Assembly: GCF_024502345.1 (NCBI RefSeq)
Contig: NZ_JALDNN010000003.1
Direction: 5' to 3' (one strand)
From: Escherichia coli
Lineage (GTDB): Bacteria > Pseudomonadota > Gammaproteobacteria > Enterobacterales > Enterobacteriaceae
DNA length: 64,000 nt
The translations under genes were made by a program, and so were the position numbers. Below the pieces are notes generated by a model, which saw nothing but the letters and a program-made list of their open reading frames with translations, was not told where the DNA came from and did no database searches. The stretch's first letter is position 1. Every line of letters begins with the position of its first letter. Of this stretch, positions 13,809 to 63,559 are shown one piece after another.

Positions 13809-13887
13809 GAGCGTGCCAAACCAAAATCTATGGATATGAGCATCCTCGATTCATGCCTCCATAGAAATGACATCGAAGGAGTCATAC

Positions 13888-14562: not shown

Positions 14563-14645
14563 GATGCCGGTCTGTCTCACTCTCATGCAAAGGTAAGATC
14601 AACCATTTAATCCGCTTACCCCAGAATAATAGGGAGTGCATATAA

Positions 14646-15557: not shown

Positions 15558-15568
15558 CACGGCCAAAA

Positions 15569-17622: not shown

Positions 17623-18231
17623 ATGAAGCTGTATTACACCCCCGGCGCCTGTTCCATGGCCCCGCACATCGCCCTGCGCGAAGCCGGCCTGAAATTCGAC
17701 CTGGAAAAGGTCGACCTGATGACCAAGAAAACCGAATCGGGCGCCGACTTCACCGCCATCAATCCCAAAGGCTACGTGCCGGCGCTGCAGCTCGACAACG
17801 GCCAGGTGCTGACCGAGGTCGGCGTGGTGCTGCAATACATCGCCGACCAGAAGCCGGGCAGCGGACTGGCCCCGGCCGCCGGCACGCTCGAGCGCTACCG
17901 CCTGATGGAGATGCTGAATTTCATCTCCACCGAGCTGCACAAGAACTTCGGTCCGCTGTTCAACCCGGCGGCCGGCGACGACGCCAAGAAAGCAGCCATC
18001 GAGATGATCGGCAAGCGCCTTGGCTACCTCGACCAGCAGCTGGCCGGCAAGCAGTATCTGCTCGGTGACACCTTCACGGTGGCCGACTGCTACCTCGCCA
18101 CCATGCTCGGCTGGTGCCAGTACGCCAAGCTCGACCTGTCGGCCTGGCCGAACATCGGCGCTTACGCCGGCCGCGTGATGAGCCGCCCGGCGGTGATCGA
18201 GACGATGAAGGCCGAAGGCCTGATGGGCTGA
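17623..18231 (+). CDS. Glutathione S-transferase
   Basis: AAGGAG RBS; MKLYYTPGACSMAPHIALREAGL... typical GST N-terminal thioredoxin-like fold; about 67% GC. Confidence 0.8.
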   Translation: MKLYYTPGACSMAPHIALREAGLKFDLEKVDLMTKKTESGADFTAINPKGYVPALQLDNGQVLTEVGVVLQYIADQKPGSGLAPAAGTLERYRLMEMLNFISTELHKNFGPLFNPAAGDDAKKAAIEMIGKRLGYLDQQLAGKQYLLGDTFTVADCYLATMLGWCQYAKLDLSAWPNIGAYAGRVMSRPAVIETMKAEGLMG

Positions 18232-18314
18232 GGGCCACCTGCCGATGCGGCGCGGGTCACGCCCGCGCCGCACGGCGTCAATCCATACCCCCCATCGATT
18301 CCCCAGGAGCCCCC

Positions 18315-19106
18315 ATGCTCGTCGAACGCATCTGGACCGGTAATTCGTACCGCAACTTCAACTACCTGATCGCCTGCCCCGAGACCGGCGAAGCGCTGGC
18401 GATCGATCCGCTGGACCATGAAAAAACCCTGAACACGGCCAGGGTCAAGGGCTGGCAGATCACGCAGATCCTCAACACGCACGAGCACCACGACCACACC
18501 GGCGGCAACGCGGCCGTGGTGGCGGCCACCGGCGCCAAGGTGATCGCGCACCACAAGGCCGCGGGCAAGATCGAAGGCATGGACCGCGGCGTGAAGGCCG
18601 GGGACGTGATCAAGGTCGGCCGGCACATCGAACTGGAATGCCTGGACACGCCCGGCCACACGATGTGCCACATCTGCCTGCGCTCGCACACCGACGAGCC
18701 GGCGCTGTTCTCCGGCGACACGCTGTTCAACGCGGGCGCGGGCAACGTGCACTACGGCGGCAGCGTGGACGAGCTCTACACCACCTTCGTGCAGCAGCTC
18801 GCGAAGCTGCCGGAGAACACCCGCGTCTACCCGGGGCACGACTACATCGAGAACAACCTGCGCTTCACGCTCGCGCGCGAGCCCGGCAACGCGGCCGCGC
18901 AGGCATTGCTGCCGCGGGTGACCGGGCATGACCCGGCCACTTCGGTGGTCACCACGCTGGCCGAGGAGAAGCGCTTCAACACCTTCTTCCGCCTGGCCAG
19001 CCCCGAGGTGATCGCCAAGCTGCGCGAGAGCTTTCCCGAGCTGCCGGAACAGCCCGACGCGAAGACCGTGTTCACCAAGCTGCGCGAGCTGCGCAACCAG
19101 TGGTGA
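18315..19106 (+). CDS. gloB: Hydroxyacylglutathione hydrolase (glyoxalase II), metallo-beta-lactamase fold
   Basis: AGGAG RBS; metal-binding motif THEHHDHTGGN; C-terminal glyoxalase-II-like region. Confidence 0.75.
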   Translation: MLVERIWTGNSYRNFNYLIACPETGEALAIDPLDHEKTLNTARVKGWQITQILNTHEHHDHTGGNAAVVAATGAKVIAHHKAAGKIEGMDRGVKAGDVIKVGRHIELECLDTPGHTMCHICLRSHTDEPALFSGDTLFNAGAGNVHYGGSVDELYTTFVQQLAKLPENTRVYPGHDYIENNLRFTLAREPGNAAAQALLPRVTGHDPATSVVTTLAEEKRFNTFFRLASPEVIAKLRESFPELPEQPDAKTVFTKLRELRNQW

Positions 19107-19151
19107 GCAGCGGCCGGCGCCGGCCCCTTACTTCAGCGTGAACCGCACGGT

Positions 19152-20165
19152 GTGCACTTCCATGTCTGCGCAGTCGATGGCGTGTTTGAGGAAGTGGCGG
19201 GCGAGGAGGGCGATGCTGCTGATGCAGCTTCTCAAAGCTCACCATCGCGCATCATCTTCCACCCCGCCACCGGCGTGACTGCGGATGCCGTGGGTCAGGT
19301 GCAGGCCAGCTTACGCAAACGCATCCTGCGCGCCTTTGTCGGACGGGGCCTGCTGGAGAGTTTCGAGGCCCAAGAGATGCTGGGCTACAAGCACAGCGGG
19401 TTTTCGGTGGACACCAGCGTGTGCATAGCGGCGCACGACCGCGCCGGGCTGGAGCGGCTGCTGCGCTACTGCGCCCGCCCGCCGTTTGCCATGGAGCGGC
19501 TGCGCAAAGCGGGCAGCGAGCTGGTCTACCGCTGCGCCAAGCAGCACAGCGAGCCCGGCAGCCTGCCTCACAACAAGCGCGGCGTAAAGGCCGATGAGAT
19601 CACCCTCACCCCGCTGGAGCTGATTGAACGTATCGCCAAGCTGGTGCCCCCGCCGCGCACGCACCGCCACCGCTACTTTGGCGTGCTGGCACCGAACTCA
19701 CCCTTGAGGCCTGCCGTCACGGCGCTGGCGCGTGATGCAGCGGTGAAACCGGCGCAGGTGCAAGCCGAGCCAGCCAGCACGGCTGCAGGCGAGGGCGCAC
19801 TTGGGGTAAGAAGCCCACTGCCAACCCAGACCGAGCCCGCCCAGCCGGTGCCACCCAAGCGCCCGGCGCACTATTTGTGGGCGGTGCTGATGGCCCGTAT
19901 CTACGAGGTGTTCCCGCTGCTGTGCCCCATCTGCGGCGGGCAAATGCACATCATCGCCTTCATCACACACAGTGCCGATATCCGCCAAATACTGGAGCAC
20001 ATCGGGGTGGAGACGGAGCCGCCGCACATCACCCCGGCACGCGGGCCGCCACTGTGGGACGAGTGCGACGCGCAAGCCGCAGAGGGCGTGGAGCCAGCCC
20101 CAGACTGGGATGAAGCGACCCAACCGGCCCCGGACTTCGAGGTCGATCAGCGCGTCAGTTGGTAG
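19152..20165 (+). pseudogene. IS91/ISCR-family (HUH, rolling-circle) transposase, N-terminally truncated
   Basis: ORF opens at an HUH-like motif (HFHVCAVDGVF) and contains HRHRYFGVLAPNS and a CPICGG zinc-ribbon-like motif; no N-terminal domain; abuts the gloB stop. Confidence 0.4.
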
Positions 20166-39862: not shown

Positions 39863-41455
39863 CTATTTATTGGTGAGATCTACGTTCCATGGCAGCAGTT
39901 CGGCCACTTTGTTGATGGGCCACTCCGGCAATACGCTCAGGATATGGCGAAGGTAACCCTCTGGATCGATACCGTTCAGCCTGCACGTTCCGATCAGACC
40001 ATACAGCAGGGCACCACGTTCACCACCATGATCACTGCCGAAGAAGATGTAGTTTTTCTTGCCCAGACAGACCGCTCGTAGCGCGCGCTCAGCAGCGTTA
40101 TTATCCGGCTCTGCCAGACCATCATCGCAGTAGTAACACAGGGCATCCCACTGGTTCAGTGCATAAGCGAACGCCTCGCCTAACCGGGATTTTTTCGACA
40201 GAGTGGCTCTTTTCTCCACCAACCAGTCATGCAGGGATATCAGCAACGGTTTACTTCGGGACCGTCTGGCGGCCAGCCGCTGAGATGCCGGAAGGCCGCG
40301 TATTTCCTCTTCTATCGCGTATAACTCACTGATGCGCTTCAGAGCCTCCTCTGCTGTGGCCGTCCGGGTGCTGATATAGACGTCATGGATTTTGCGCCGC
40401 GCATGAGCCCAGCATGCCGCTTCTGTCAACGGGCCACCTTCACGCTCTGCGCTGAACAACCTGTCGTACCCTGCGAAGGCATCTGCCTGCAGCACGCCAT
40501 GATAGTGCCGAAGATGTTGCTGAGGGTGTTTCCCCTGTCGGTCCGGTGAGAAGGCGAACCATGCCGCTGGCGGATCTGATGAACCCGCGCTTCTGTTATC
40601 ACGGACATATGTCCAGATACGCCCGGTTTTCGTCTTCTTTCTGCCCGGCGCCAGCACGGGCACCGGAGTGTCATCCGTATGCAGTTTGCGGCAGTCCATC
40701 ACGTAGTGGTAGAGGGCTTCATCCAGCGGGGCCATTAACCGGCAGCACGCATCCACCCAGTTGGAGAGCAGCGCACGACTCAGATCCACACCCTGACGGG
40801 CAAAGATTTCGCACTGGCGATACAGCGGCAGGTGTTCACAGTATTTGGCCGTTAACACGCGGGCCAGCAGACCCGGCCCGGCGATGCCCCGGTCGATAGG
40901 ACGTGAGGGCGCTGGCGCTTCAACGACGCAGTCGCATCGGGTACAGGCCTTTTTCACTCTGACCGTGCGGATCACTTTCAGGGCGCTGGAGACCAGCTCC
41001 AGTTGCTCCGCGCTGACTTCGCTGAGATAGGCCATATCACTACCGCAACCAGGACAGCTGGTTTCAGCTGGCTCCAGTCTGTTTATTTCGCGGGGAAGAT
41101 GTTCCGGTAACGGGCGACGATGACGGGACTGGCGCAACTGACGCGGAACCTGCTGATCATTGTCCCGGCCGTTGTAACGATCGCTTTGCTGCTCCTGCTG
41201 TTTCAGCAGGGCTTCGGCTTCTTCGACCTGCCGGCGTAGCTTTTCTGAACGGGTACCGAACAGCATTCGGCGCAGTTTTTCTATCTGAGCCCGCAGATAT
41301 TCTATTTCACGCTCTTCGTTCTCTATTTTCTCTTCTGCGCGGGCCAGCGCCGAACGCAGGAACGACTCAGTCTCAGCAACGAGACTGAGCTGGCTGTCTT
41401 TCTGGCGAAGCGCGTCTTCCAGCGCAGCGATACGGGCGAGATAGTCCTGACTCAT
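39863..41455 (-). CDS. tnpC: IS66-family transposase TnpC
   Basis: 530 aa with N-terminal coiled coil, zinc-finger region and DDE core. Confidence 0.85.
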   Translation of the reverse strand: MSQDYLARIAALEDALRQKDSQLSLVAETESFLRSALARAEEKIENEEREIEYLRAQIEKLRRMLFGTRSEKLRRQVEEAEALLKQQEQQSDRYNGRDNDQQVPRQLRQSRHRRPLPEHLPREINRLEPAETSCPGCGSDMAYLSEVSAEQLELVSSALKVIRTVRVKKACTRCDCVVEAPAPSRPIDRGIAGPGLLARVLTAKYCEHLPLYRQCEIFARQGVDLSRALLSNWVDACCRLMAPLDEALYHYVMDCRKLHTDDTPVPVLAPGRKKTKTGRIWTYVRDNRSAGSSDPPAAWFAFSPDRQGKHPQQHLRHYHGVLQADAFAGYDRLFSAEREGGPLTEAACWAHARRKIHDVYISTRTATAEEALKRISELYAIEEEIRGLPASQRLAARRSRSKPLLISLHDWLVEKRATLSKKSRLGEAFAYALNQWDALCYYCDDGLAEPDNNAAERALRAVCLGKKNYIFFGSDHGGERGALLYGLIGTCRLNGIDPEGYLRHILSVLPEWPINKVAELLPWNVDLTNK

Positions 41456-41485
41456 GACCCCATTTATAATGCGGTCATGCGCTTT

Positions 41486-41836
41486 TTACAACATCGTCAG
41501 TGAGTTAAGGCGTGCAGTTTTAGGTTGCCGCCAGTCCAGCTTATCGAGGAGCATGGCGAGTTGTGAGCGGGTGATGGCGATTTTGCCGTCGCGTACAGCA
41601 GGCCAGACGAACTGTCCCTCTTCCAGACGTTTGGTAAACAGACACAGACCGTCAGCATCAGCCCAGAGGATCCTCACGGTGTCACCTTTACGACCACGGA
41701 AGATAAACAGGTGGCCGGAGAACGGATTGTCATCAAGAACATGCTGGACCAGTTCGCCCAGACCATTGAAGGACTTACGCATATCGGTGACCCCGGCAAC
41801 CAGCCAGATACGAGTGCCTGACGGTAAGGGTATCAT
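41486..41836 (-). CDS. tnpB: IS66-family accessory protein TnpB (orfB)
   Basis: MIPLPSGTRIWLVAGVTDMRKSFNGLGELVQHVL...; ATGA overlap with orfA. Confidence 0.8.
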   Translation of the reverse strand: MIPLPSGTRIWLVAGVTDMRKSFNGLGELVQHVLDDNPFSGHLFIFRGRKGDTVRILWADADGLCLFTKRLEEGQFVWPAVRDGKIAITRSQLAMLLDKLDWRQPKTARLNSLTML

Positions 41837-42240
41837 CGGCTCCTCCCGGTCAGCTCGCGGATCAGCGTTTTCAGAAGTGCAGGTGATAAATCCCCGGACA
41901 GACGCAGGCTGGCACCGCCGACAGTCACCTCGCATGTCATGGCCTCGCGGCAGGCTGGAGCGGCGGGTTCATAGTGCGGCTCAGCATGGTGTGACAGGGC
42001 CATATCAGGCAGGACAACGGGGATAACAGAGTCTTGCTCTCTGATTGACCGTTGTATTTCATCGGGCAGAAGATGTCTGTAACGCTGGCGCCAGGTAAAC
42101 AGCAGATTGTCATTAATTCCATTATCCCGCGCCAACCGGGCAACACAGGCTCCAGGCTGATATGACTTTTCGACGAGAGCCAGCTTAAAGTCCATTGAGT
42201 AGGACGCCCGCGCCCTGCGGGGCTGAAGAGTGTTTGACAT
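41833..42240 (-). CDS. IS66-family accessory protein TnpA (orfA)
   Basis: 135 aa, HTH-containing N-terminus. Confidence 0.75.
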   Translation of the reverse strand: MSNTLQPRRARASYSMDFKLALVEKSYQPGACVARLARDNGINDNLLFTWRQRYRHLLPDEIQRSIREQDSVIPVVLPDMALSHHAEPHYEPAAPACREAMTCEVTVGGASLRLSGDLSPALLKTLIRELTGRSR

Positions 42241-42334
42241 TGATAGAGTCCATTAACGTTAATAAGAGGACTCTATCATCGTCAATCGTTAGTAATCGCA
42301 ACAGGCGGCAGTGGCTTGACGCTTACAGACAAAA

Positions 42335-42366
42335 GGCTGCCTCATCGCTAACTTTGCAACAGTGCC
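42335..42366 (+). mobile_element. IS26 copy 3, terminal 32 bp including the right inverted repeat
   Basis: GGCTGCCTCATCGCTAACTTTGCAACAGTGCC resumes the IS26 sequence after the duplicated AGACAAAA. Confidence 0.9.
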
Positions 42367-44834
42367 GTCGCTGACATCGTGCAACGACACAGAGCTAACG
42401 CTTAGGGTGTCATTTCGCCCTCAGCCGGAACCGACCCCAAGGACAGCGACTCTCAGTGATGGAGCACCTAAAAAGAGGCCCTGTCACTATCAGCGGCCCC
42501 GCATTCACTGAAGCACTTGAACGTTACACTCGCCTGCGCAGCCTGGAATTTTCCTGCCTGAATTTCACTGGGCTGCCTGCCATACAGCTCCGCAACCTGG
42601 CACGCTATGCCGGAATGGCATCGGTGAAATATATCAGCAGAATGCCAGAAGAACGGCGGCTGGCTATCCTTACCGCGTTCGTGAAAGCGCAAGAAATCTC
42701 GGCGCTGGACGAGGCCGTTGACGTGCTGGATATGCTGATCCTCAATATTACCAGGGAGGCGAAGAAAACCGGGCAGAAAAAGCGACTTAGGACGCTCAAG
42801 GATCTTGACCGTGCGGCGTTGTTGCTGGCGCGGGCATGTGCACTTTTACTTGATGAAGATACTGGTGATGATTTGCTGCGAAAGACCATATTCAGCAGTG
42901 TACCTGTCGCCAGACTGGCAGAGTCAGTGGAAAAAGTGAATGAACTGGCCCGCCCCCAGGATACAAACTTTCAGGATGAAATGGTGGAGCAGTACGGACG
43001 GGTAAGGCGTTTTTTGCCCGCACTACTGCGCGATCTGCACTTCCGGGCGGCCCCAGACGGTGAACATACCCTCGCGGCCATCCATTACCTGGCAGAGCTA
43101 AACGGCTCGAAAAAACGGATCCTGGACGATGCACCTGAGCATATCATTTCAGGCCCTTGGAAACGCCTGGTGTACGATGCTGAAGGTCGGATACAGCGAG
43201 CGGGTTACTCGTTGTGTCTGCTGGAGCGACTTCAGGATGCGCTACGCCGTCGTGACATCTGGTTGGAAAACAGCGATCGTTGGGGTGATCCGCGCCAAAA
43301 ACTTCTTCAGGGGGAGGAATGGCAGGCGCAGCGGGTTCCAGTGTGCCGGGCATTGGGTCACCCCACCAATGGCAGTAAAGCATCGGTGCAATTGGCAGCA
43401 CGGTTGGATGAAACCTGGAAAACGGTGGCATCACGTTTTGACCGCAATACCGCCGTAGACATCTGCAATGAAGGTAAACATCCTTCGCTGACCATCAGCA
43501 GCCTGGATAAATTGGATGAGCCACCGGCGCTGATACGACTGAGCAGCCGAGTCAGACAATTGCTCCCACCCGTTGACCTGACAGAACTGTTGCTTGAGAT
43601 TGACGCCAGAACGGGTTTCACCCGTGAATTCAGCCATGTCAGCGAGTCAGGTGCCCGCGCGCAGGATCTGCATATAAGCCTGTGTGCGGTGATGCTGGCT
43701 GAGGCCTGCAATATCGGACATGAGCCGCTGATCAAGCACAATATCCCTGCACTGACCCGCCATCGCCTGAGCTGGGTGAAACAGAACTACATCCGAGCAG
43801 AAACGCTGGTCAGCGCCAATGCGCGGCTGGTTGATTTTCAGTCCTCGTTAGCGTTGGCAGGATACTGGGGTGGCGGTGAGGTGGCCTCCGCTGATGGTAT
43901 GCGTTTTGTCACACCAGTGAAAACGGTGAATTCTGGCCCCAACAGAAAATACTTTGGTTCAGGGCGCGGCATTACCTGGTACAACTTTGTCTCTGACCAA
44001 TATTCGGGTTTTCATGGCATAGTGATCCCTGGAACGCTGCGGGATTCCATTTTTGTGCTGGAGGGACTACTTGAGCAACAAACGGGACTAAACCCGGTTG
44101 AAATCATGACGGACACAGCAGGTACCAGTGACATTATCTTTGGCTTGTTCTGGCTACTGGGATACCAATTTTCACCTCGTCTGGCGGATGCTGGTGAGGC
44201 GGTGTTCTGGCGGGCTGACAAAGCAGCGAATTACGGGGCGTTGGACGAACTGGCTCGGGGTTGTGTTGACCTTTCTAAAATCGAAAGCCACTGGGATGAG
44301 ATGATGCGGGTTGCAGGTTCGCTGAAGCTGGGCACAATTCATGCGTCAGAACTCATTCGATCGCTATTGAGAAGTACCCGACCGTCAGGGCTTGCTCAGG
44401 CAATAATGGAGGTCGGAAGAGTTAACAAGACACTGTATCTTCTCAACTATATTGATGATGAGGACTATCGCCGCAGGATCCTAACACAGCTTAACCGGGG
44501 CGAAGGTCGCCATGCCGTGGCAAGAGCCATTTGCTACGGTCAGCGTGGTGAGATCAGAAAACGTTACCGCGAGGGGCAGGAAGATCAGTTGGGTGCGCTG
44601 GGTCTGGTGACAAACGCAGTGGTGCTGTGGAATACGCTTTATATGCAGGAAGCCTTGTCGCACCTGCGTAGCACTGGGGAAGGGCCAGAAGATGAACATA
44701 TCGCGCGGCTTTCGCCTCTGATGCATGGTCATATCAACATGCTGGGACATTATACGTTCACACTACCGGAGGATATTATGAAGGGGGAATTGAGGCCGTT
44801 AAATCTCAATTTAAACAATGAATTACCTCCTTAG
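42367..44834 (+). pseudogene. tnpA: Tn3-family transposase TnpA, lacking roughly the first 200 codons (truncated at IS26)
   Basis: Translation aligns with Tn3-family TnpA from about residue 210 to the C-terminus (...LGALGLVTNAVVLWNTLYMQEAL...MLGHYTFTLPE...); in-frame stop 30 bp from the IS26 boundary. Confidence 0.8.
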
Positions 44835-45965: not shown

Positions 45966-46233
45966 ATTTACACCTCTACTCAAAAGAGCCTAATAGAAAC
46001 TAAATCCTTATATATCAATAACTTGAATTCGCCATCACGCACCCATAGAGAGCACCCGTCTTTTGTCGGGCCGTAGGGTTGTTGGCCCCATAGTAACTGC
46101 ATGCTAATCTCTTTCATGCTTAGTCACTAGTAAAGGCTTTACTAATTGCGATGCTACGTGAATATTATTGACGGAGGAGGGGGTTGGGGCAGTGAAAATC
46201 TCTCAGCCAAAACAGTGGGAAAAGGATCGTGAA

Positions 46234-47046
46234 ATGAGCATGAATTATCAGCCGGAACTGAAGTTGAGTACCCGCACCGAACAACTCGCCAGTAGTCGTG
46301 ATGCCGCTATGCAAAAATTTCTGGACGGTATTATGCTGATTGCCGAAGCCTCAGCTATTTGCGGGTTTTCACTATTTAACAGCAAAATTATGGCCCCTAA
46401 TGCTTTTGGCCTTCCTGCGTCCCTGGCCGCAAGCATCGAGGAAGGGCGACAGCAAATAGACCGTAAGACATGGAACAATCTTTTTGAAGAAACGGGTATT
46501 GACCGATTCTGGAATCACAACCAGCGAGCGGAGTTCAGTGAGTCTCTCCGGTCCGCTCCGCCAATTGCGTCGTTAACCGTAATCCGTAGCACATTGCGCC
46601 AGGCAGTGGCCATTCGGAGCATCACGCTTGCTCAAGGGTTTGTTGATCTGCTATGCCAGCTTGATCGCCGGTATAAAACTAATGCCCAGCAATTTGTGAT
46701 GCCAAAAAAACTGGTACTACGTGGCATTTTTCCCGACTCGAACATGATGAGATATAACGGCTTTTCTCAGGATAATCTCTTCTATTTGAACGACTTTGAG
46801 AATATCGTTTGCATCTGCTCCAACGCAGCGACACCTCCTGTCGGCAGTGGATTGAATATGTACGACCGGCTTGCTGCCTTAAGGAAAACCGATTTTACTG
46901 GTGACATTACCGACCCGAAGGGCTGGAAGTGCCGATTGTTCGTAAATGGTAATGTCCATATTTCAGTTGAGTGTGAAAGCCTGCATAACACACTGAATGA
47001 CCTGATTAGCATTTATTTTGCCAACCAGATCCCGGCCAAAGGATAA
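46234..47046 (+). CDS. hypothetical protein (about 270 aa; alternative upstream starts to 46168)
   Basis: AAAGGA RBS 8 nt before ATG; stop 2 nt before the next gene start. Confidence 0.45.
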   Translation: MSMNYQPELKLSTRTEQLASSRDAAMQKFLDGIMLIAEASAICGFSLFNSKIMAPNAFGLPASLAASIEEGRQQIDRKTWNNLFEETGIDRFWNHNQRAEFSESLRSAPPIASLTVIRSTLRQAVAIRSITLAQGFVDLLCQLDRRYKTNAQQFVMPKKLVLRGIFPDSNMMRYNGFSQDNLFYLNDFENIVCICSNAATPPVGSGLNMYDRLAALRKTDFTGDITDPKGWKCRLFVNGNVHISVECESLHNTLNDLISIYFANQIPAKG

Positions 47047-47048
47047 GA

Positions 47049-48269
47049 ATGATGACTGACAATGAAAATTTGATGAACGGGGATGAACAGACAGCGTCCA
47101 ATTTAAGTGAAGAGACAACAAAAAAGCGCCCTCTCAGCCCCGAACTACTGAAGAATTCTCCTTATTCATCAATAGCTAAGGTTAAATATTTCACCGAAAT
47201 TGAACAAATCTGCCTCGATAAGGGCATCAGCACCGAAAACCTCGATCAGTTTTTCAAAGCCCACTGGCTGCGGGATAAAATGGGGGGGTCTTTTGCCCGC
47301 GCTCAGGAGATGCTGGCTGCCTACAAGCAATACGTGGACGAGGTGCCCGAGGAAGCGCGTGCGATTGAAATCCCTGACCAGATTAAAGAAGCATTTAGTG
47401 ATTTTACTGCGTTTATCATCTGGTACTTCCGCTTAAGCTATACGGCTATCCAGAGTGATAGCGTGAAAATTGCGAAGGCAGAAATTACTCAGTTAAGACA
47501 TCGGAATGCTGAAATTCTGGAAGAACTGTCACAGTCGAAAGAACAGGTTACAGTACTGAATAACGAAAAAGTTAACCTGATTAACCAGCTGGAACAACAG
47601 CGTGAACTCGCCAGTAAATTGGGGGATTCACTTCGGGAAGCAGAAGAAGCGCTGGCTACAACCCAAAGTGAATTACAGCATGCCCAAAACGAGATTCAGC
47701 TTATACAGCAGACAGTAGGGACACTGAACCAACAACTGAGTGAGCGCAAGCAGGAACTGGCCTCCCAGCAGGAGTACCAGAAGCAACTGAATGATGAGAA
47801 TAAAGAGCAGCAGGTAGAGCTGACAGCCCTCAAAAGCCAGAATGAACACTTACAACGGACCGTATCTGATTTAAAGGTCAGTGTCAGTCAGCTTGAACAG
47901 GACCTTTCCTCAGCACAAACCCATTCCTCTGAATTGAGCTCATCTTTAGCCGAAAAGGACACGGCCCTGACGCTCGTGCGGTCGGAGCTGTCAACAGCTA
48001 AAGGGGAGAATGAACAACTTCGAGCTGAAGCACAACGCTTAGGTGATGAGAGCCTGCTTGCCAAAAAGGTGCAAACAGCTCAGACAGAAGAACTTCGGAA
48101 GCTCCAGAATCAGATGATATCCATGGAAGCGACACTCAATGCGGAAAAGACCATTTCAGAGTCTTTACGAGGAACAATCAAGCAGCTTACCGAAGCTATG
48201 ACCGGCGCAGTTGCCATCAAACCTAAATCCTCTGGGGCATCAAAACCGCGAAACAAAAAGACGACATAA
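47049..48269 (+). CDS. Coiled-coil protein with KfrA-like N-terminal putative DNA-binding region
   Basis: N-terminal about 100 aa then about 250 aa of Q/E/L-rich heptad-like sequence (...LREAEEALATTQSELQHAQNEIQLIQQTVGTLNQQLSERKQELASQQ...). Confidence 0.4.
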   Translation: MMTDNENLMNGDEQTASNLSEETTKKRPLSPELLKNSPYSSIAKVKYFTEIEQICLDKGISTENLDQFFKAHWLRDKMGGSFARAQEMLAAYKQYVDEVPEEARAIEIPDQIKEAFSDFTAFIIWYFRLSYTAIQSDSVKIAKAEITQLRHRNAEILEELSQSKEQVTVLNNEKVNLINQLEQQRELASKLGDSLREAEEALATTQSELQHAQNEIQLIQQTVGTLNQQLSERKQELASQQEYQKQLNDENKEQQVELTALKSQNEHLQRTVSDLKVSVSQLEQDLSSAQTHSSELSSSLAEKDTALTLVRSELSTAKGENEQLRAEAQRLGDESLLAKKVQTAQTEELRKLQNQMISMEATLNAEKTISESLRGTIKQLTEAMTGAVAIKPKSSGASKPRNKKTT

Positions 48270-48540
48270 CTGCTCCCGCCAGGAATTTGCAATAGACTTA
48301 AATTCCTGGCGTCCACAGGCTCTTTATCCCGTTCGCAGGAGTTTACGTCCTTCCGACAGCATTAGGCTGATTTTCCCCGAATCACTGATCTCAATAGCAT
48401 CAACCAGGCTAGTGATCCCGCCAACAGCTTGCTGTTGTGAAATAGCTCCCAGTTTGTAGTCATCGAGTACTGCCGCCAAAAACGCCTTCAGTTTAACCTG
48501 CTCACTCATCGAAAGTATGTACGCCATTTTTAGCCCCATT

Positions 48541-49860
48541 TTAAGGTTGTGATTCGGGTGAATTGTATCGTCTAGCTTCCGGGAAATGAGGGAGTTCCTG
48601 GTATTCAGTCTTCTCCGTAGCATCCCAGTGCCACCATCCATAGGCCCCATATTCCTGGTTGTAATACGCCTTCTTAAGTTCCTTTCGCGCAAGATAGGCA
48701 GGTGTCGACATCCCGAAAACTTCCATCGGGAACGGCTTATCACTTCGTGTATCCAGTAAATAAAAATCTGGGAAAACATCGCTCACACTGGCGTCATACC
48801 GCATAGGCTTAACATAGTGCCGGTGTTCGGCATCAAGTTTACGGGACACTATCGCTTCGTAGGAGGAGTCCAGAGGTATCCAGTTATCACTCACCAGCAT
48901 AAGCACTATCTGATGAGCTCGTGCAGAGATACCTCTACTGGTCACCGATACGGGAGATGTAAGAGCAAAAACAACAACTTTGCCCCCATTTTTCCAGGCG
49001 GCATATTCCAGAGGGAATCGCCGCTTCACGCTATCCCAGTGCCCGTCTGAGTTAAAGAAGGTAAGGGGCATACCGCCGAAGTTACGCATAGGTAGAAACT
49101 TCAGCGGCTTCTCATGCTTTTCTGCGTCATAGCGCGGCAGTACTGATAGCAGCAGCAGTCGTTTGTCGCTCAGTTCCGCCGACGACAGCAGTTGAACCTG
49201 CTCACTGGCCACTTTGCTTTTAGAGTCCGCCACCCCGATAAAAAGATGGTCGCCAATACATGCTCTACCCGATCTAATCTGCTTTGCGGCTTCCAACATC
49301 CGGTATCGAACCAGCGAATCATTTCGCTTCCCGGCCATATTCGGATACCAGACATTAAGACCGGCTTCAGTCCACAACAGACTCAGAAGTCCGGACAGGG
49401 TCATTGAAGCCTGGCCACCTTCAGGTCGCTGGATTTGGGGCAGGGAAGGAACCTCAGACTTTTCCGGCGGATCTTTCTCCGTCATGCCTATTCCAAGGCG
49501 GATTGACATGGTCCCCTCATTGTTGATGCGTACAACATTGCTGGCATAACCCTTTAACCCTGTATGCCTGGCATCAAGGTCGAAAAACACACACGATGGA
49601 TCATGCTCAGTGCCGGTATTTGCAGCCTTAATCAGGATGAACGTATCACTGTTTGGTAGTGAGCGGACGTAGAGACGCTTTGCGCCTTTTCCCCGACATC
49701 CGCAGCTGATCACAGATTTCTGCCCGGACGTGTGGTGTGCTTTCTTCAGGGCCGACTGCCATCCCTTTACATACTCATCCTGTGTCTGAAATTCAGCCGA
49801 GTATCGTTTCGTGTTTGGTTCGTCATCGTAAGCAATAAAAACTGCAAACTTCTGGCCCAT
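48541..49860 (-). CDS. hypothetical protein (439 aa), last gene of the Dcm-like methyltransferase operon
   Basis: AGGAGG RBS; Cys/His cluster near the N-terminus (SCGCRGKG...HDPSC) and a possible D-x9-D-x-K segment (IGDHLFIGVADSKSK). Confidence 0.5.
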   Translation of the reverse strand: MGQKFAVFIAYDDEPNTKRYSAEFQTQDEYVKGWQSALKKAHHTSGQKSVISCGCRGKGAKRLYVRSLPNSDTFILIKAANTGTEHDPSCVFFDLDARHTGLKGYASNVVRINNEGTMSIRLGIGMTEKDPPEKSEVPSLPQIQRPEGGQASMTLSGLLSLLWTEAGLNVWYPNMAGKRNDSLVRYRMLEAAKQIRSGRACIGDHLFIGVADSKSKVASEQVQLLSSAELSDKRLLLLSVLPRYDAEKHEKPLKFLPMRNFGGMPLTFFNSDGHWDSVKRRFPLEYAAWKNGGKVVVFALTSPVSVTSRGISARAHQIVLMLVSDNWIPLDSSYEAIVSRKLDAEHRHYVKPMRYDASVSDVFPDFYLLDTRSDKPFPMEVFGMSTPAYLARKELKKAYYNQEYGAYGWWHWDATEKTEYQELPHFPEARRYNSPESQP

Positions 49861-49884
49861 GGGACCTCCTGAAATTTAAAAATA

Positions 49885-50052
49885 CTAATAGCCTAGCCAT
49901 ATCAATACTTCTTGCGCGTTGTACTCTTCCCTCTCACCCAACTCGGAAAAAAATACGTCTATGTCGCTGGCTACGACGCAATGTTTTGCAAGCTCTTGCA
50001 GAGCTCTCTGTTTTGAAATGGTGAGGTCTTCTGCTGAATCAAAATACGTCAT
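49885..50052 (-). CDS. small hypothetical protein (55 aa) between the methyltransferase and the 439-aa gene
   Basis: Not in the supplied ORF track (under 60 aa); GGAGG RBS 5 nt upstream of ATG; translation MTYFDSAEDLTISKQRALQELAKHCVVASDIDVFFSELGEREEYNAQEVLIWLGY. Confidence 0.35.
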   Translation of the reverse strand: MTYFDSAEDLTISKQRALQELAKHCVVASDIDVFFSELGEREEYNAQEVLIWLGY

Positions 50053-50183
50053 CATTACCTCCTGATGAAGGAGTTGACTGAAGCAGGCCTTTCTCTCCCT
50101 GCCCAGGTTTTTTTCTGTGCAAAAGTTACAATATTAGTGAAATAAACCATTACGTTAACCTGCAAAATCACACAGAAGAATTA

Positions 50184-51611
50184 CTATGATGCCGCTTCAA
50201 ATTCTCCCTTGAGACGAGCCGCAACGGCGATCTCAATACGGCTTCGAAGCAAACTGGCCACGGCCGCAAATACGTCGACGATGACCGAATTGCCGAACTG
50301 GCGATAGGCCTGGGTATCAGAGACTGGAATGCGAAAAGTAACTTTTCCCGGTTGCTCGAATCCCATAAGGCGGGCACATTCTCGCGGGGTTAAACGGCGC
50401 GGGCGCCTTGCCATATTTACAGGATCATTAAAGTCCTTTTCGCCTATGCTGTGATCCCATCCACGGTCTAGCAAAATTTCAGAGCCATCACGATAGTACC
50501 GTGCGCTGAGTGTTCTGCAAACAACTGATTTATCAAGTGGATTTACCAGTCCGAAGCCAAATCCATTACCTTTTGCCTGGTGCTTTTTAGCGTAGTTATA
50601 AAGGTACTCCCAGAGCTTTGGAGAAAGGATGTAACGGCTATCGACCTCAGCGTCCAGCAGCTCCCCAAGGGTTGGCCGTCGTGAAGGATAAAGAGCCGAT
50701 ACACCACTTAACGAAAAGCCATCATGGAGCTTCAGATCGCGCCTGAATCCAACCAACACGATACGTTCCCGGTGCTGAGGCCTGAAGTTCTTACCGTCAA
50801 TTATTTTGGGGTCCTTTGATCCGTGAGCATCGCAGTCGGCAACATCGTAGCCAAGTTCATCAAGCGCTTTCATGATGATGCGGAACGTATTTCCCTTATC
50901 GTGGCTCTTCAGATTTTTTACGTTCTCAAGAACGAAAATGGCAGGCTGTTTGGCTCGGATGATCCGGGCGACATCAAAAAAAAGGGTCCCCTGGGTGTCG
51001 CATTCAAAGCCGTGTTTTCGGCCCAAAGAGTTCTTTTTGCTGACACCGGCAATACTGAACGGCTGGCATGGGAAACCGGCGAGCAAAACATCATGGTCAG
51101 GAATGGATGCAGCGATAGAAGCATACGCCTGGTCTTCCGACACATCGGGAAGATTGCTGAGTGTAATGTCCCGGATATCTGAGTTGAAATGGTGCTCGGT
51201 GTCTTCGCAGTACCAGTTTGCACTGTATGTCCGGCGGGAGAACTGATTCCATTCGCTTGTAAACACGCATTTCCCGCCAATGGCGTCAAAACCACTCCGG
51301 AGGCCACCGATCCCAGCAAACAAGTCAATAAAACGGAAAAATTTCTGGTCATAGTCTGCTGGGCGTGAGGGGAGCAACGATCGAAGATAATGATATTCTT
51401 CCTGGGTTATTCGACATTCATTAACTGAACCTTTGATCTGGCGAATAAGTGATGCCCTCGACCAGTCGCTGCCGGTTGCAGCATTAAGTTGCGCAGCCAA
51501 ATCTTTTACGTCATAGATACTTGCAACCTGAACCAGTAATTTATGGATAGAGGAATGTGTCTCATCATTTAGCAATGCAGTTATTGCAGGCTCATTTCTC
51601 GCGCTGTACAT
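50184..51611 (-). CDS. dcm: DNA (cytosine-5) methyltransferase, Dcm/M.EcoRII-like
   Basis: Motif [16 protein letters not shown], motif [13 protein letters not shown], motif VI ENVKNL, motif X QFGNSV; full-length collinearity with Dcm (475 aa); GGAG RBS. Confidence 0.9.
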
Positions 51612-51833
51612 CCTTACTCCGTGAAATGTGATTAATTTAGGTTCTCAGACTACCACGCGCAGAAAATTCAATTTTTCTTTAAAGCCCTTTATTTTCATCT
51701 CCTGAAATAAATTTTTTATCCACTTAAATTGCCTCCGTTAACGGAAATTTGCCCGGGTTCTAATTGGTACAATAAGCACTTCTAATCACACGACTAATTT
51801 GTTACTACAAACCATCTAATTCAGGGAGAATGT

Positions 51834-52349
51834 ATGACTCTGTTGAAAAAGTTACTTTTGCCGACATTAATTGTCCTTTTCCCGGCGGCAGTTCTGGCTG
51901 GTCAGTCTTCATTTGAAGCAAAAGTGGTAAAAATTATCGATGGGGACACCATTACCGCGCTCGACGGTCAGAATACAAGCATCAAAATCCGTATGTACGG
52001 TATTGATGCCCCCGAAAGTAAGCAGGCCTTTGGACAAAAGGCTAAACAAGCGTTGAGCTCCGCGATTGCTGCACAGAATATTACGGTAATAGACCACGGA
52101 CCTGATATTTACGGCAGGATGTTGGGGACTATTTGGCTTGATGGTTATGACATCAACGCTTCAATGGTAGACAGTGGTTATGCATGGGTATATCGGTTTG
52201 ACGGTAATCCCATCGTCCCAAACTATCTTAAATTCGAAGCTTCAGCTCAGAAAGCCGTTAAAGGTCTCTGGGTAGATCCTAATCCCGTTGCTCCTTGGGA
52301 GTGGCGCCAGCAAAACCAGAAACCTCAAAAGACGAAAAGCAGGGGGTGA
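51834..52349 (+). CDS. Secreted thermonuclease (staphylococcal-nuclease/SNase fold)
   Basis: Signal peptide MTLLKKLLLPTLIVLFPAAVLAG; SNase-like core (VVKIIDGDTI...IRMYGIDAPE...). Confidence 0.7.
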   Translation: MTLLKKLLLPTLIVLFPAAVLAGQSSFEAKVVKIIDGDTITALDGQNTSIKIRMYGIDAPESKQAFGQKAKQALSSAIAAQNITVIDHGPDIYGRMLGTIWLDGYDINASMVDSGYAWVYRFDGNPIVPNYLKFEASAQKAVKGLWVDPNPVAPWEWRQQNQKPQKTKSRG

Positions 52350-52354
52350 GCGCG

Positions 52355-53287
52355 ATGACAAGCCAGCATCCTTTACTGAAAATTGCACTTAATGGCGATG
52401 GACTTCTTTCGTGGCCAAATTCACCCGGACAGACTATGCGCTGCCCAACGTGTATGCGAGATGTTATTACGGGTCCGGATGGTGATTTAATACATCAAAT
52501 GGAAGAGGGCGCTAACCCCTGCACGCCATCTGTTGATGTTGTCATTTCAAAGGCGATCATTGAACTACTCAGCACGGGTGAGCGCCTCTATGTCAACCCA
52601 GTTAAGAACGCGAATAGAACACTGGCCCCATCGTTTATCTTTCTGCATAAAGACAAGCAACTTCGACCATTCATAAATACGGAATATCAACCAGCAGGTG
52701 CCACCTGGAGAAGTGATAAAGGGAACAGGCTTGGTTTTTTCTATATGGATGCGCGAGCGTCTAAAATTAATAAGGACCAGTTCGATTTTATTGCTGTAAT
52801 AGACCCATCTACTTTTCAAGCAGAATTTAAGACCTTATGGTCCATGTGTGAATTCGATAACCCCCTTGCCGCGTTACAGCACTTATTGGTTTCAGAGAAT
52901 ATGTCTTCAGTCTGGGTGAAATGGCCTGTTAAAAGCCTACAACCGAGGAAAGAAGCAGTGAAGGCCGATTACTGGTATGACTATTATTCACCTCACTACC
53001 CAGCGCAGCAGGCAGCTTGCACAGCAACAGTGATTGGACTGGAAGGAAATGTATCCGGGGAAACTATTTACATGCTCCAGATCGCTGTAGACCGGTCGAT
53101 AGTTGAGTACCAGCTTGTAAAATCGCTAGGGGTTATATTGCTATTGGATAATACGGGAAATTTGGTATCGGAGACGCGCCCACACTTTGATATAATCATC
53201 AAAGCTTGCATCTCGGGTGTCAGAGACTTTGTACGTCAAAATCCTCGAATGCGAAGTGTGGAGCATCAGATTACCAGTGCAATATGA
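52355..53287 (+). CDS. hypothetical protein (310 aa)
   Basis: Starts 6 nt after the nuclease stop; no motif recognised. Confidence 0.45.
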   Translation: MTSQHPLLKIALNGDGLLSWPNSPGQTMRCPTCMRDVITGPDGDLIHQMEEGANPCTPSVDVVISKAIIELLSTGERLYVNPVKNANRTLAPSFIFLHKDKQLRPFINTEYQPAGATWRSDKGNRLGFFYMDARASKINKDQFDFIAVIDPSTFQAEFKTLWSMCEFDNPLAALQHLLVSENMSSVWVKWPVKSLQPRKEAVKADYWYDYYSPHYPAQQAACTATVIGLEGNVSGETIYMLQIAVDRSIVEYQLVKSLGVILLLDNTGNLVSETRPHFDIIIKACISGVRDFVRQNPRMRSVEHQITSAI

Positions 53288-53380
53288 GGAAATGGATCAG
53301 CGACTAAATCTGTTGCTCGCCGTAAATACAAGTGCGCACCATAAAATAAAAACACTTTATAAATCAATGACTTTGTCAAA

Positions 53381-53403
53381 GCTAAGTAGAGATGTCCGGG
53401 GTG
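53381..53403 (+). repeat. Left copy of a 23-bp imperfect inverted repeat
   Basis: GCTAAGTAGAGATGTCCGGGGTG matches the reverse complement of 60508-60530 at 20/23 positions; second ATGTCC motif 23 bp inward. Confidence 0.45.
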
Positions 53404-53781
53404 GGGCAAAGTTCAAATGTCCTTTGATAATATTGAATTCCTGGATAAAAATCGCATCTTAACCTCTTCGTTTGAGTACCTTGTTGGGTTGACCCCGTAT
53501 TCGCTTTATTTGTAGTATTGGGCTGCTTTGAAGTGTTTCATGTTCAAACGCGACGTGTTCTGTAAGTTCTTCCTGACAACAGAGCCGACAATATATACAC
53601 ATCCGCTATGGAGAATCTGACAACCGCTATGCGTATTACGCCACCCTGAGTTTTTCCTTCCTCTGTCGTACTGAGCAAGCCTCAGCACGCACTCAATAAC
53701 ATCCCGTCTGCGGATGTGCTTTACCGTACGTAAAAATGTAGCCCTCCAGGGCTGACTGTATCTAAAAACTGAGAAATTACT

Positions 53782-60780: not shown

Positions 60781-61587
60781 CTAAATAGGTTCTACATTCA
60801 ACGGGAAGGGAAACCAAATATCTATATGTTTTTTATAAATACCATTACGTGGCAAACAACAATCTGCATATTTTTTTAAAGAATCTCCACATGGACAAAT
60901 ATTTTCTGGCGATAATACTCCATCATGTTCTTTCGCCTTAAATCTCCAGGTCGTAATATTGAAAATTTGATGTGGGGATTGTATGTATTTGACAACACTA
61001 ATTAAAGTTGAATAGTTATAATGATCACCATCATTGGAGAAAAAAACACTACATTTGTTAACGGGATTACTAACTATGTCATAAGTAATTAATTCAAAAT
61101 CGATCACTTCATCAAAGCAAAGAACTCCATTATAAAGTTTATTTTTAACATGACCACAATCATTAATAAAACTACGGGTTGTATTACATACTGAACATTT
61201 CACTTCTTTTATTATTTCACGAGAACTACCGAAGATTTTATATGGGAATAACGCCTGCCAATTACATACCATTCTCGCTAAGAAGTTAACACCATAGAAA
61301 TTAACCTCAGGCAGAAACTCATTATTTTCTTTAATATGTATTAAATCTATTTCTATCCTTTCAAGTTCTACCCATGCTTCATAAAAATCACCTCTTGTAA
61401 GTAAATTAATGACTTGAATATATTTTAAATGGGCTAGTAAAATTGTTTTGTATAAAAACAATCTGTTTGATTCATTATTCAAGCTCAAGGATTGAGCTTT
61501 TTTTAACTCAGCATTAAGATAATCAAGAATAGCACTATCTTCTTGAGTAATACACATCCAACGCTTTAACTTTTCGTGAATATTCAT
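60781..61587 (-). CDS. hypothetical protein with C-terminal SEC-C-like metal-binding motif
   Basis: 268 aa, about 30% GC; C-terminus CPCGDSLKKYADCC and an internal CSVCNTTRSFINDCGH cluster. Confidence 0.55.
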   Translation of the reverse strand: MNIHEKLKRWMCITQEDSAILDYLNAELKKAQSLSLNNESNRLFLYKTILLAHLKYIQVINLLTRGDFYEAWVELERIEIDLIHIKENNEFLPEVNFYGVNFLARMVCNWQALFPYKIFGSSREIIKEVKCSVCNTTRSFINDCGHVKNKLYNGVLCFDEVIDFELITYDIVSNPVNKCSVFFSNDGDHYNYSTLISVVKYIQSPHQIFNITTWRFKAKEHDGVLSPENICPCGDSLKKYADCCLPRNGIYKKHIDIWFPFPLNVEPI

Positions 61588-61604
61588 AATATCTATATAG
61601 ATTT

Positions 61605-62051
61605 TTATTTGATTTTGTTAATTACTTTTAAAACATCGTCTACTTTTCCAGAAACAGTGTATTTCACATGTTTTCCTGATTTATTTTTTTTAATTATAGA
61701 GACTTTAACGTCTATATCTCTAGTTCCAAAGTTATCAATTTTTTTCTGAATATAATTTGAAACAAGATTTACTAAAAAAGGTATCATTACTGATGTGGCA
61801 AAGAAAGTGCCTAACGCTAACGTTATACTGTTTAATTGCAGGTACGAAACACCATTAGAATCTCCGTACACTTTAACATTAGAATGTGATTGCTTGGTGA
61901 ACTGGAAAAAATCCAGTGCATTACCTCCAGTAATTTTTGAACTATCAAAAACGATCGCAATCTCATCATCTTGAGGTTCATATGAAGAAATGATTTTTAC
62001 CTCTTCATCTTCATCACTCATTTCACTCAAAGTAATGGGGTTCATTCTCAA
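61605..62051 (-). CDS. hypothetical small protein with one predicted transmembrane helix
   Basis: 148 aa; acidic N-terminus, hydrophobic segment ITLALGTFFATSVMIPFLVNLV, basic C-terminus. Confidence 0.5.
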   Translation of the reverse strand: MRMNPITLSEMSDEDEEVKIISSYEPQDDEIAIVFDSSKITGGNALDFFQFTKQSHSNVKVYGDSNGVSYLQLNSITLALGTFFATSVMIPFLVNLVSNYIQKKIDNFGTRDIDVKVSIIKKNKSGKHVKYTVSGKVDDVLKVINKIK

Positions 62052-62197
62052 CTCCTTGTTTTATATTTTTACATTCAAATTTTACTATACGACTGGTTAA
62101 TTGCTCCTGTCCAACACACACCAGAGTTCATATGCTTAGCATACAAGGGACCAATGCCAGTAGCGACAGGCTAGTGTGTCAAAAAACCACATGAAGA

Positions 62198-63559
62198 TCA
62201 ATCTCCTGCGGAAAATTTGGCCGCAATTAGTTTCATTGTCCTTTCCATGCCTTGATAAACTGTCGCATCTGTAATGTTTAACCTTGCGAGTTCCTTAAGT
62301 ATTCTAGCTTTGTTTCTGATCACTATTTTTTCTACTTTAAACTCTTGCATAGCATCATCAGGGTTTGAAACTAAATCGGGATAAACAGCATTATTCCCAA
62401 ATAATAAGAATGCACCTGACTGTGATGACATCCTTTCATTATTATTTCTTCCTTTAACGAAAATTAACCTTTCCAAATCTGATGGTATAATTACATCTTT
62501 AAAATAAGGTTTTTCATCTTTAATGTAATGTATGAGTTTTTGACAAGCTTCAGTTTTATTGAAAGCCTCCTTGTCCATTTTACAATCCAGCTGATCTTTC
62601 AGTGTTTGACTTAGCATTGATATATTTGATATGCAACTTACTGTATCAGAGTCAAAGAATTTTATACGATCCCTTTTTGTTTTGAAAATAATAACATGTC
62701 CATCAACCTCATTTGTATTTTCATTATTACTAATGTCGCAACAAGCGAAATACAGAGCGATTAGTGGATTTGATGTTATATCCAACAAACGAGTTGGTAG
62801 TCCGTAGTGTTGCATCCTTACTAACTTGTCTAGCATTGTTTTATCATCAACAAACTCAGTTGGCCTTGCTGTTAGGGCTTCACGGACTAAATTTGATTCA
62901 CTGTGCAAATGCTTGAAGTTACCTTTTTTGTTTTTCCTGAAAACTGATGGAGCCAACTCGTAAGATACATCAGAATGTCCACGATAAAATATTTCTGCAT
63001 CTTCTTCATGATCTTGTTCTAAAACACGCGCCATGAAACTTTGAACATTATCTATTATTGGGTAGTTATCAACTTCATCAGGAAGTGCTTCAGTAGGAGG
63101 AAGTGGTGTACTTCTTGTCGTTATATTTAGAAGTGCTAATGTTTGATTTAAATCACGTGCTTTTATTCCCCAGTGAGTCCGTTTCAGCCCATATGCACCT
63201 AATTCTAAAGCTGTTTGATATAACTCTTTGTTTATCACTACGACATCATCTTGTGAGTGAGTGATTCTGAAATCAAACTCAACATTTTTGTTAACTGTTC
63301 GTAGATTTGAAATTACACCAAGTCGCAAAGTAATGTATTCAACATTGTCTCGGGAATAAAGTTCTGACATAAAAAGCGTAGGTAATTTCTCAATATAAGA
63401 TAATGCTTTATCATTCAAAGGCGTTAACTTCAACCGGATGTCATCAGAGGTGCCTTCTAACATACGTGATATAGGAAAATCACAACTCCCACTAACCCGT
63501 TCATACATGGGCCAATGTTCAAAATAGTCAGGTTCTCCGCCCATAATTAGATTAAACAT
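62198..63559 (-). CDS. FRG-domain protein (453 aa)
   Basis: FRG signature IFYRGHSDVSYELAPSVFR followed by HYGLPTRLLDITSNPLIALYFAC; flanking N- and C-terminal regions unrecognised; AAGGA RBS. Confidence 0.65.
   Translation of the reverse strand: MFNLIMGGEPDYFEHWPMYERVSGSCDFPISRMLEGTSDDIRLKLTPLNDKALSYIEKLPTLFMSELYSRDNVEYITLRLGVISNLRTVNKNVEFDFRITHSQDDVVVINKELYQTALELGAYGLKRTHWGIKARDLNQTLALLNITTRSTPLPPTEALPDEVDNYPIIDNVQSFMARVLEQDHEEDAEIFYRGHSDVSYELAPSVFRKNKKGNFKHLHSESNLVREALTARPTEFVDDKTMLDKLVRMQHYGLPTRLLDITSNPLIALYFACCDISNNENTNEVDGHVIIFKTKRDRIKFFDSDTVSCISNISMLSQTLKDQLDCKMDKEAFNKTEACQKLIHYIKDEKPYFKDVIIPSDLERLIFVKGRNNNERMSSQSGAFLLFGNNAVYPDLVSNPDDAMQEFKVEKIVIRNKARILKELARLNITDATVYQGMERTMKLIAAKFSAGD

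Follow-up and report, generated by a model that had tools for sequence, protein, structure and literature searches.

Conjugative plasmids are known to carry homologues of staphylococcal nuclease (SNase): the parCBA stabilization operon of RP4/RK2 encodes one, the Ca2+-dependent ParB, together with the ParA resolvase and ParC. Secreted nucleases are also known in pairs with cytoplasmic inhibitors, such as barnase-barstar, Anabaena NucA-NuiA, and the colicin DNases with their Im proteins, and we know of no bacterial protein that serves as dedicated partner or inhibitor of a nuclease of the SNase type. In plasmids of the pLS20 family, an SNase-like thermonuclease and a C5-methyltransferase are both among the putative establishment genes (PMC8708921), and in Rhizobium favelukesii pLPU83a a thermonuclease and an uncharacterised WGR-domain protein are encoded in one operon that is co-regulated with the tra genes (PMC13055273). 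Here we describe a locus in a 64,000-nucleotide stretch of an Escherichia coli contig (NZ_JALDNN010000003.1, assembly GCF_024502345.1; hereafter the window), in which the gene of a predicted exported SNase is followed by a gene for a 310-amino-acid (310-aa) protein, P310, the two being transcribed divergently from an operon headed by a Dcm-type methyltransferase. The nuclease is of a known plasmid kind; what is new is its orphan partner.

An exported SNase homologue, a coupled 310-aa gene, and a divergent Dcm operon had been proposed in a preliminary description of this DNA, and the open reading frame (ORF) map and the sequence confirm that anatomy. The SNase gene (51834–52349, plus strand, 171 aa) is preceded by a Shine-Dalgarno sequence, AGGGAGA, at 51823–51829. 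At the SNase/P310 junction (52342–52354, plus strand), a GGGGG Shine-Dalgarno sequence (52342–52346) precedes the SNase stop codon (TGA, 52347–52349), and a spacer of 5 nt (52350–52354), rather than the 6 nt given earlier, leads to the ATG of P310 (52355–53287, plus strand); as read from the sequence, the junction is one of translational coupling. An alternative TTG start at 52295 would give a 330-aa form of P310; the ATG is favored, as the N-termini of homologues align there and RefSeq annotates the 310-aa form. On the other side, Dcm starts at 51611 on the minus strand, which leaves the 222-bp divergent region (51612–51833) that had been described between the two operons. RefSeq labels SNase as “thermonuclease family protein” and P310 as “hypothetical protein.”

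SNase matches the PF00565 profile over positions 1–106 of 107 (E = 8.5e-23, 81.3 bits against a cutoff of 21), and thermonucleases in the PDB are matched at ∼1e-9. We read the active site from an alignment to the solved thermonuclease structures and 11 plasmid homologues. Residues D38, R53, D58, E61, and R95 of SNase correspond to D21, R35, D40, E43, and R87 of S. aureus nuclease and are invariant in 12 homologues; T41 of the S. aureus enzyme, a position that acts as a backbone ligand, is replaced by A59. The N-terminus, MTLLKKLLLPTLIVLFPAAVLA up to the predicted cleavage site and GQ beyond it, displays a KK n-region, a hydrophobic core (mean Kyte-Doolittle value of 2.0 over 19 residues), and a V-L-A cleavage motif. 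These features define a predicted Sec signal peptide of 22 aa (51834–51899, plus strand, cleavage after VLA), in line with the signal peptide assigned before, and comparable hydrophobic signal N-termini are present in 12 of 12 aligned SNase homologues. The gene has a dN/dS of 0.075. SNase scores below the NCBIfam equivalog cutoffs for both EcnA (NF047969, 63.5 versus 180) and NucI (NF047694, 45 versus 250). These features strongly support a staphylococcal-type enzyme, of the kind that degrades DNA and RNA, which is predicted to be Sec-exported, Ca2+-dependent, and non-specific for sequence. Since the metal-binding and catalytic residues are complete and export is predicted, SNase would act in the periplasm or the medium and not on cytoplasmic DNA.

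We inspected the P310 gene and its relatives in 14 contexts (the window and loci L001, L002, L003, L006, L007, L008, L009, L012, L013, L019, L020, L021, and L023). The P310 relative lies directly after an SNase gene in all 14, at a spacing of 2–17 nt or with an overlap of 4 or 8 nt, and even in L006, with two additional genes between the pair and Dcm, SNase and the P310 relative (P315) stay adjacent. Two apparent SNase-partner fusions, P0032 and P0036, were set aside as read-through or deletion products rather than natural fusions, and confirm the adjacency only. SNase homologues, by comparison, are encoded on at least 5000 of the 72,556 plasmids in PLSDB, versus 1410 with P310. Their neighborhoods are varied: finO-SNase-hha, without P310, in IncF plasmids; traX-SNase-finO in IncFII plasmids; SNase with a convergent SRAP gene in a MOBP plasmid; SNase-ccdAB in a MOBC plasmid; and SNase downstream of DUF1173 in Acinetobacter plasmids. 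SNase itself is unremarkable, its gene family being very common on plasmids. Judged from these gene orders, P310 appears to depend on the nuclease gene, and the nuclease gene does not appear to depend on P310.

P310 is a real gene under constraint, since its dN/dS against two relatives is 0.23–0.32. This is 3–4 times more relaxed than the value for SNase, a degree of relaxation typical of accessory or binding proteins. The ORF had been called unrecognised, and it remains so: neither the single sequence, nor the full family profile, nor two sub-domain profiles matched Pfam, NCBIfam, PADLOC, PHROGs, or PDB sequences, and Pfam held no match for any of 21 family members at E up to 10. The family is small, with 22 clusters among 5.8 billion proteins, 25 clusters in a profile search, and 21 homologues when 1.84 billion representatives were scanned exhaustively with HMMER; the plasmids that encode it are of IncHI type wherever inspected. 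The P310 sequence lacks a transmembrane segment and a signal peptide, and the family has a pI of 5.5–9.0. These data strongly support P310 as a soluble protein, predicted to be cytoplasmic, whose orphan family is very small and evolves fast.

The family alignment displays an N-terminal motif, C30-x2-C33...H47...C56, which is missing in three divergent members (P0017, P0018, and P0033) and is hence not essential. The central α/β region contains the invariant residues W118, S120, K122, and G123. In the C-terminal sheet, E236 is also invariant and is followed by (E/D)251-x-(Q/K)253, which places acidic residues on consecutive strands. A conserved FDFIAVIDP strand and an LLDNTG turn are further family features. 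An AlphaFold (AF2) model built from 21 sequences (pLDDT 77.3, pTM 0.61) predicts small N-terminal hairpins, the central α/β region, a disordered loop (194–218), and a C-terminal four-strand sheet plus helix. A Foldseek search of the PDB with this model returned nothing below E = 0.1, and the best match in BFVD was an unnamed entry (I3UKP0, E = 1.8e-3); a fold search also gave a weak similarity of the C-terminal domain to the DNA-binding protein SpoVG. The predicted model has no convincing fold match. Thus, the suggestion that P310 might prove to match a known unrelated family was not borne out, as homology and structure prediction gave no assignment, and P310 is a genuinely unassigned, lineage-restricted family in ∼1400 sequenced IncHI plasmids. 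A literature search found no functional study of the IncHI thermonuclease or P310 genes (including EcnA, IncHI2, and R27).

Two possible kinships of P310 were dropped. Residues 67–98 align on the PD-(D/E)XK-like core of DUF1173, but the same short alignment recurred in three hhalign runs with probabilities of 0.2–0.95% and E = 0.06–0.3, and the position of the “PD” aspartate is occupied by S, G, A, or D and is not conserved; with a probability below 1%, we kept this alignment as a lead only and not as evidence. P0039, a 1,252-aa extracellular nuclease with repeated domains, gave a weak phmmer match to P310, and BLASTP located a 27–32% identical motif of ∼60 residues that is repeated three times. 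We judged this match spurious because the motif sits on a helix in the P310 model and has no Pfam LTD match.

We favor, tentatively and with a probability of roughly 40%, a reading in which SNase and P310 form an autonomous two-gene operon of the IncHI-type backbone and P310 acts with or for the nuclease. The main basis for assigning P310 such an accessory role is the asymmetric dependence described above; the pLS20-family establishment genes and the pLPU83a operon are parallels from other plasmids. P310 may bind the un-exported SNase precursor and keep it harmless or export-competent; alternatively, it may tune nuclease production. P310 would then not be a partner of Dcm, whose proximity would reflect a shared backbone island of DNA-handling or “establishment”-type genes (Dcm, DUF1173, DUF4942, and SNase). 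Several observations weigh against this reading. Adjacency may mean only that the two genes share the SNase promoter, and an SNase-P310 interaction is inferred. SNase relatives that are ∼49–53% identical and have the same catalytic residues occur without P310 in plasmids of the pNDM-MAR, pNB04, and pLVPK types, and E. coli is reported to export staphylococcal nuclease to its periplasm with no inhibitor present (PMC5674116); by these two observations, the nuclease needs no immunity protein. P310 is also large (310 aa) and not acidic, unlike classical nuclease inhibitors. Finally, the presence of P310 tracks that of Dcm across two IncHI architectures, which the accessory reading has to treat as coincidence.

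The Dcm-type C5 cytosine methyltransferase (50184–51611, minus strand, 475 aa; PF00145 and PF18284) is the lead gene of the divergent operon, which continues on the same strand with genes for a 56-aa protein (49885–50055), a DUF1173 protein (48541–49860), and a 67-aa protein (48324–48527). Dcm scores best as an orphan methyltransferase (PADLOC model, E = 6.8e-212). Wherever the flank of a sampled P310 locus extends far enough, Dcm lies nearby. L006 had appeared to hold the pair without Dcm, a candidate that was ruled out when tblastn found the N-terminal half of Dcm at the contig end. At L009 (5790–7163), the Dcm gene is spread over three frames (−3/−2/−3) by two frameshifts, and SNase, the P310 relative (P311), DUF1173, and the other island genes are intact; this Dcm is probably a pseudogene, although an error in the metagenome assembly is also possible, and a chromosomal dcm of the host could compensate.

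Plasmids of the pNDM-MAR, pNB04, and pLVPK types (IncHI3/HI5/pLVPK-type) lack Dcm, the 56-aa gene, and P310. They belong to a second architecture, in which DUF1173 is directly divergent from SNase-PLD (L014, 2523–5400; L026, 3505–6380; L025, 3850–5471) and both Dcm and P310 are absent. The divergent DUF1173/SNase pair is the more widely kept core. The joint presence and absence of Dcm and P310 amounts to one phylogenetic split with two separate indels flanking SNase, and is suggestive but weak. Counts of the 56-aa protein, found in ∼1420 enterobacterial plasmids versus 1410 with P310, were considered as a proxy for the Dcm operon and discarded, as plasmids of Cereibacter and Burkholderia have the gene on its own, at loci without Dcm or DUF1173 (L029, 6001–6174; L030, 5986–6156); it is for this reason regarded as an independent small gene. 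At these loci it stands among small hypothetical genes, a few kb from the gene for the type IV coupling protein. The family of the 56-aa protein is small.

Large conjugative plasmids of Citrobacter, E. coli, Enterobacter, Klebsiella, and Salmonella match the region at 99.9% identity; these plasmids are typed as IncHI with a MOBH relaxase and MPF_F, and 704 PLSDB records match by DNA. Within IncHI2, 1,108 records hold at least 80% of a 4.6-kb block and 1,134 match at 99% identity or more; the IncHI2 block is essentially clonal, and therefore co-occurrence counts within IncHI2 carry little information. In RefSeq, the island reads, on the plus strand, DUF6884 ... DUF4942 (46192–47046 in the window) and a 406-aa coiled-coil protein (47049–48269); on the minus strand, the 67-aa protein, DUF1173, the 56-aa protein, and Dcm; and again on the plus strand, SNase and P310. 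Relatives whose P310 is as little as 27% identical still have this island, DUF4942 and the 406-aa gene are syntenic in L003, L007, L009, L012, L020, and L023, and all typed plasmids among the 14 contexts are IncHI with MOBH/MPF_F. The preliminary description had offered plain plasmid backbone as the alternative to a functional link, and this alternative is the better supported, as the island is conserved across IncHI-type plasmids.

Not all parts of the island share one history, and comparison of 48541–53287 with L013 and L002 shows strong mosaicism, with a roughly 10-fold difference in synonymous divergence (dS) across the locus. Between the window and an IncHI1 plasmid, dS rises from 0.01 for DUF1173 and 0.05 for Dcm to 0.24 for SNase and 0.55 for P310, and P310 is 78% identical to its IncHI1 counterpart versus 96–100% for the neighboring genes. 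Such unequal dS indicates recombination breakpoints inside the 5-kb island, with separate histories for its two halves. The order of divergence differs in a comparison with pNDM-CIT, where P310 is the closest gene. The 406-aa gene, which begins after a 2-nt gap behind DUF4942, is the fastest-diverging island gene besides P310 (31–41% identity in distant relatives); its product is predicted to be mostly coiled coil and gave weak matches to Fez1 and ATG16 only.

The preliminary description had also raised a functional link between nuclease and methyltransferase. Dcm is near P310 at every sampled locus where the flank suffices, and SNase homologues occur without Dcm on at least 5000 plasmids of many types. 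A restriction-modification-like pairing of the two genes with Dcm is unlikely, because the nuclease is predicted to be exported and non-specific, the L009 Dcm is broken, and recombination separates the halves of the island. In a type II system one would look for a cytoplasmic sequence-specific endonuclease beside the methylase; no such gene was found by Dcm, and P310 has no match to a nuclease family or fold. Nor does an intact endonuclease here require its methylase if P310 takes that role, as judged from L009, a metagenome assembly whose host may have a chromosomal dcm. We consider it very unlikely that P310 is a cryptic cytoplasmic nuclease, or a 5-methylcytosine- or CCWGG-directed DNA-binding protein, paired with Dcm in a restriction-modification- or Vsr-like manner with SNase as a bystander. 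Restriction enzymes are typically orphan, fast-evolving, and located beside a methylase, and P310 would fit this profile. It also occurs together with Dcm (and the 56-aa gene, in near-equal plasmid numbers) in IncHI1-, IncHI2-, and pNDM-CIT-type plasmids and metagenomic relatives, both are missing from the types that keep DUF1173 divergent from SNase, acidic residues lie on consecutive strands, and the DUF1173 PD-(D/E)XK-like core recurs as its top, non-significant profile alignment. However, the twofold frameshift of Dcm beside an intact P311, the score of Dcm as an orphan enzyme, the reduction of the presence/absence pattern to a single phylogenetic split, the uncoupling of the halves implied by unequal dS, and the variable “PD” aspartate with its sub-1% probabilities all argue against it, and P310 is predicted to be co-translated behind an exported nuclease, not with Dcm.

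The accessory reading has its closest competitor in the view that P310 is an effector of plasmid establishment or anti-defence in its own right, or another cytoplasmic factor that binds nucleic acids, which shares only a transcript with SNase so that the two products never meet. We regard this as possible but rather doubtful. The predicted compartments of the two proteins, exported and cytoplasmic, agree with it, as do the thousands of plasmids that carry the nuclease without P310, the rapid divergence of P310 relative to its neighbors in the IncHI1 comparison, and its position bordering a hotspot of cargo and defence genes (Shedu in L001; SMODS with S_4TM in L023); the island also includes other genes of establishment type, namely an orphan Dcm, and psiA and an H-NS-like gene that adjoin the equivalent locus in L014. 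Nevertheless, none of the 14 contexts shows P310 apart from an SNase gene, and the two genes stay tightly coupled or overlapping even between deeply diverged relatives; PADLOC gave no match and Pfam and PHROGs no known anti-defence family; and the region is at most a putative leading region of IncHI plasmids, with no adjacent tra genes or relaxase in the inspected flanks. A role of P310 as transcriptional autoregulator of the divergent promoters (of SNase, the Dcm operon, or both), in the manner of a controller protein, receives little credence from us. Its Cys/His motif resembles a zinc ribbon, the weak SpoVG similarity concerns a DNA-binding protein, P310 presence correlates with that of Dcm, and the 222-bp region contains one candidate operator, a perfect 10-bp palindrome, CCGTTAACGG, at 51735–51744. 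This palindrome is unchanged in IncHI1 and differs at one position in pNDM-CIT, and it cannot be recognised in IncHI2 or in the metagenomic relatives; an alignment of seven loci shows the 222-bp region to be well conserved among close relatives only, unlike P310 itself. Moreover, the Cys/His motif is absent from the three divergent members, Pfam gave no helix-turn-helix or other known DNA-binding domain, and P310, with three domains in 310 aa, is large for a controller protein. As for the region itself, no strong sigma-70 consensus site was found in it, a single-strand promoter or structured RNA was rejected because the DNA folds are not unusual (z of −1.7 and −1.3), and Rfam had no match across 47–54 kb.

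Similarity to IncHI1 and pNDM-CIT-type plasmids ends at the P310 stop codon: sliding identity drops from 72–98% to ∼30% at 53283, and backbone gives way to variable cargo (53288–53781), here with SulP, Usp, and ars genes. What follows P310 differs by plasmid, with Shedu in L001, SMODS/S_4TM and Ig-like Big_3 genes in L023, SulP-Usp-ars in the window, and PLD plus DUF3800 or tellurite-cluster biosynthetic genes elsewhere. The hotspot spans the window from 53288 onward, L001 at 11757–12557, L013 at 9980–12702, L023 at 8976–15285, and L021 at 9109–16251. On the left, the island is bounded in the window by an IS66-family element and a truncated Tn3-family transposase (DDE_Tnp_Tn3) at 39863–44834. 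GC content jumps to 0.62–0.68 at 4000–11000 and 18000–20000 and falls to 0.29–0.35 at 61000–63000, against a backbone of ∼0.45–0.55; these deviant blocks are presumably transposon or other acquired cargo. Within the island, the DUF1173 subfamily (48541–49860) has a conserved C-terminal stretch, VFPDF..LLD...PMEVFGM, which resembles the remnant of a PD...E-x-(hydrophobic) nuclease core. This agrees with the published view that DUF1173 combines a Zn motif with a degenerate PD-(D/E)XK domain (PMC3045609).

P310 is a conserved IncHI backbone gene without a family or fold assignment that is always locked to a predicted exported nuclease. Among the main vehicles of multidrug resistance in Salmonella, E. 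coli, and Enterobacter are the IncHI1 and IncHI2 plasmids, including that of multidrug-resistant typhoid and mcr-1. Should P310 control the nuclease or cooperate with the methylase, this would explain the retention of the island over deep divergence, and P310 could be a handle on IncHI transfer; should it be only a passenger, the result is an ordinary backbone annotation. It is improbable, in our estimate, that P310 represents a new functional class, either a dedicated partner or inhibitor of SNase or a cryptic CCWGG/5-methylcytosine effector that makes Dcm and SNase-P310 an exclusion- or restriction-like system; if it did, the latter system would sit on ∼1400 sequenced IncHI1/HI2 resistance plasmids.

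When compared to the described systems, SNase shares with S. aureus Nuc the homologous domain (∼30% identity), the Ca2+-binding and catalytic residues, and an N-terminal secretion signal, but it is plasmid-borne in Gram-negatives, and S. aureus nuc has no coupled 310-aa gene downstream. The other plasmid-backbone SNases (IncF, pNDM-MAR/pNB04, Acinetobacter, pLS20 family) are 37–52% identical to it and have the same catalytic residues, and their downstream gene is not P310 but hha, PLD, SRAP, or ccdA. The likeness to parCBA of RP4/RK2, compared by description only, stops at the nuclease, as there is no resolvase or recombinase by SNase here and the partner is the unrelated P310. DUF1173 (PF06666), encoded 2 kb away, resembles P310 in having an N-terminal Cys/His motif of metal-binding type followed by an α/β domain, with a different spacing (CxC-xn-H-x3-5-C in DUF1173 versus CxxC-x13-H-x8-C in P310). 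With the nuclease-inhibitor pairs, SNase-P310 has in common the gene order, the tight coupling of a partner encoded immediately downstream and co-translated (5 nt here; 2–17 nt or 4–8 nt overlaps in relatives), and the faster evolution of the second gene. It departs from them in that P310 is 2–3 times larger and not acidic, and in that the nuclease family is widespread without its partner (at least 5000 SNase plasmids versus 1410 with P310), while in such pairs the nuclease would not be expected without the inhibitor. The WGR-domain protein of pLPU83a has no detected relation to P310, but that plasmid likewise co-transcribes a thermonuclease with an uncharacterised cytoplasmic companion.

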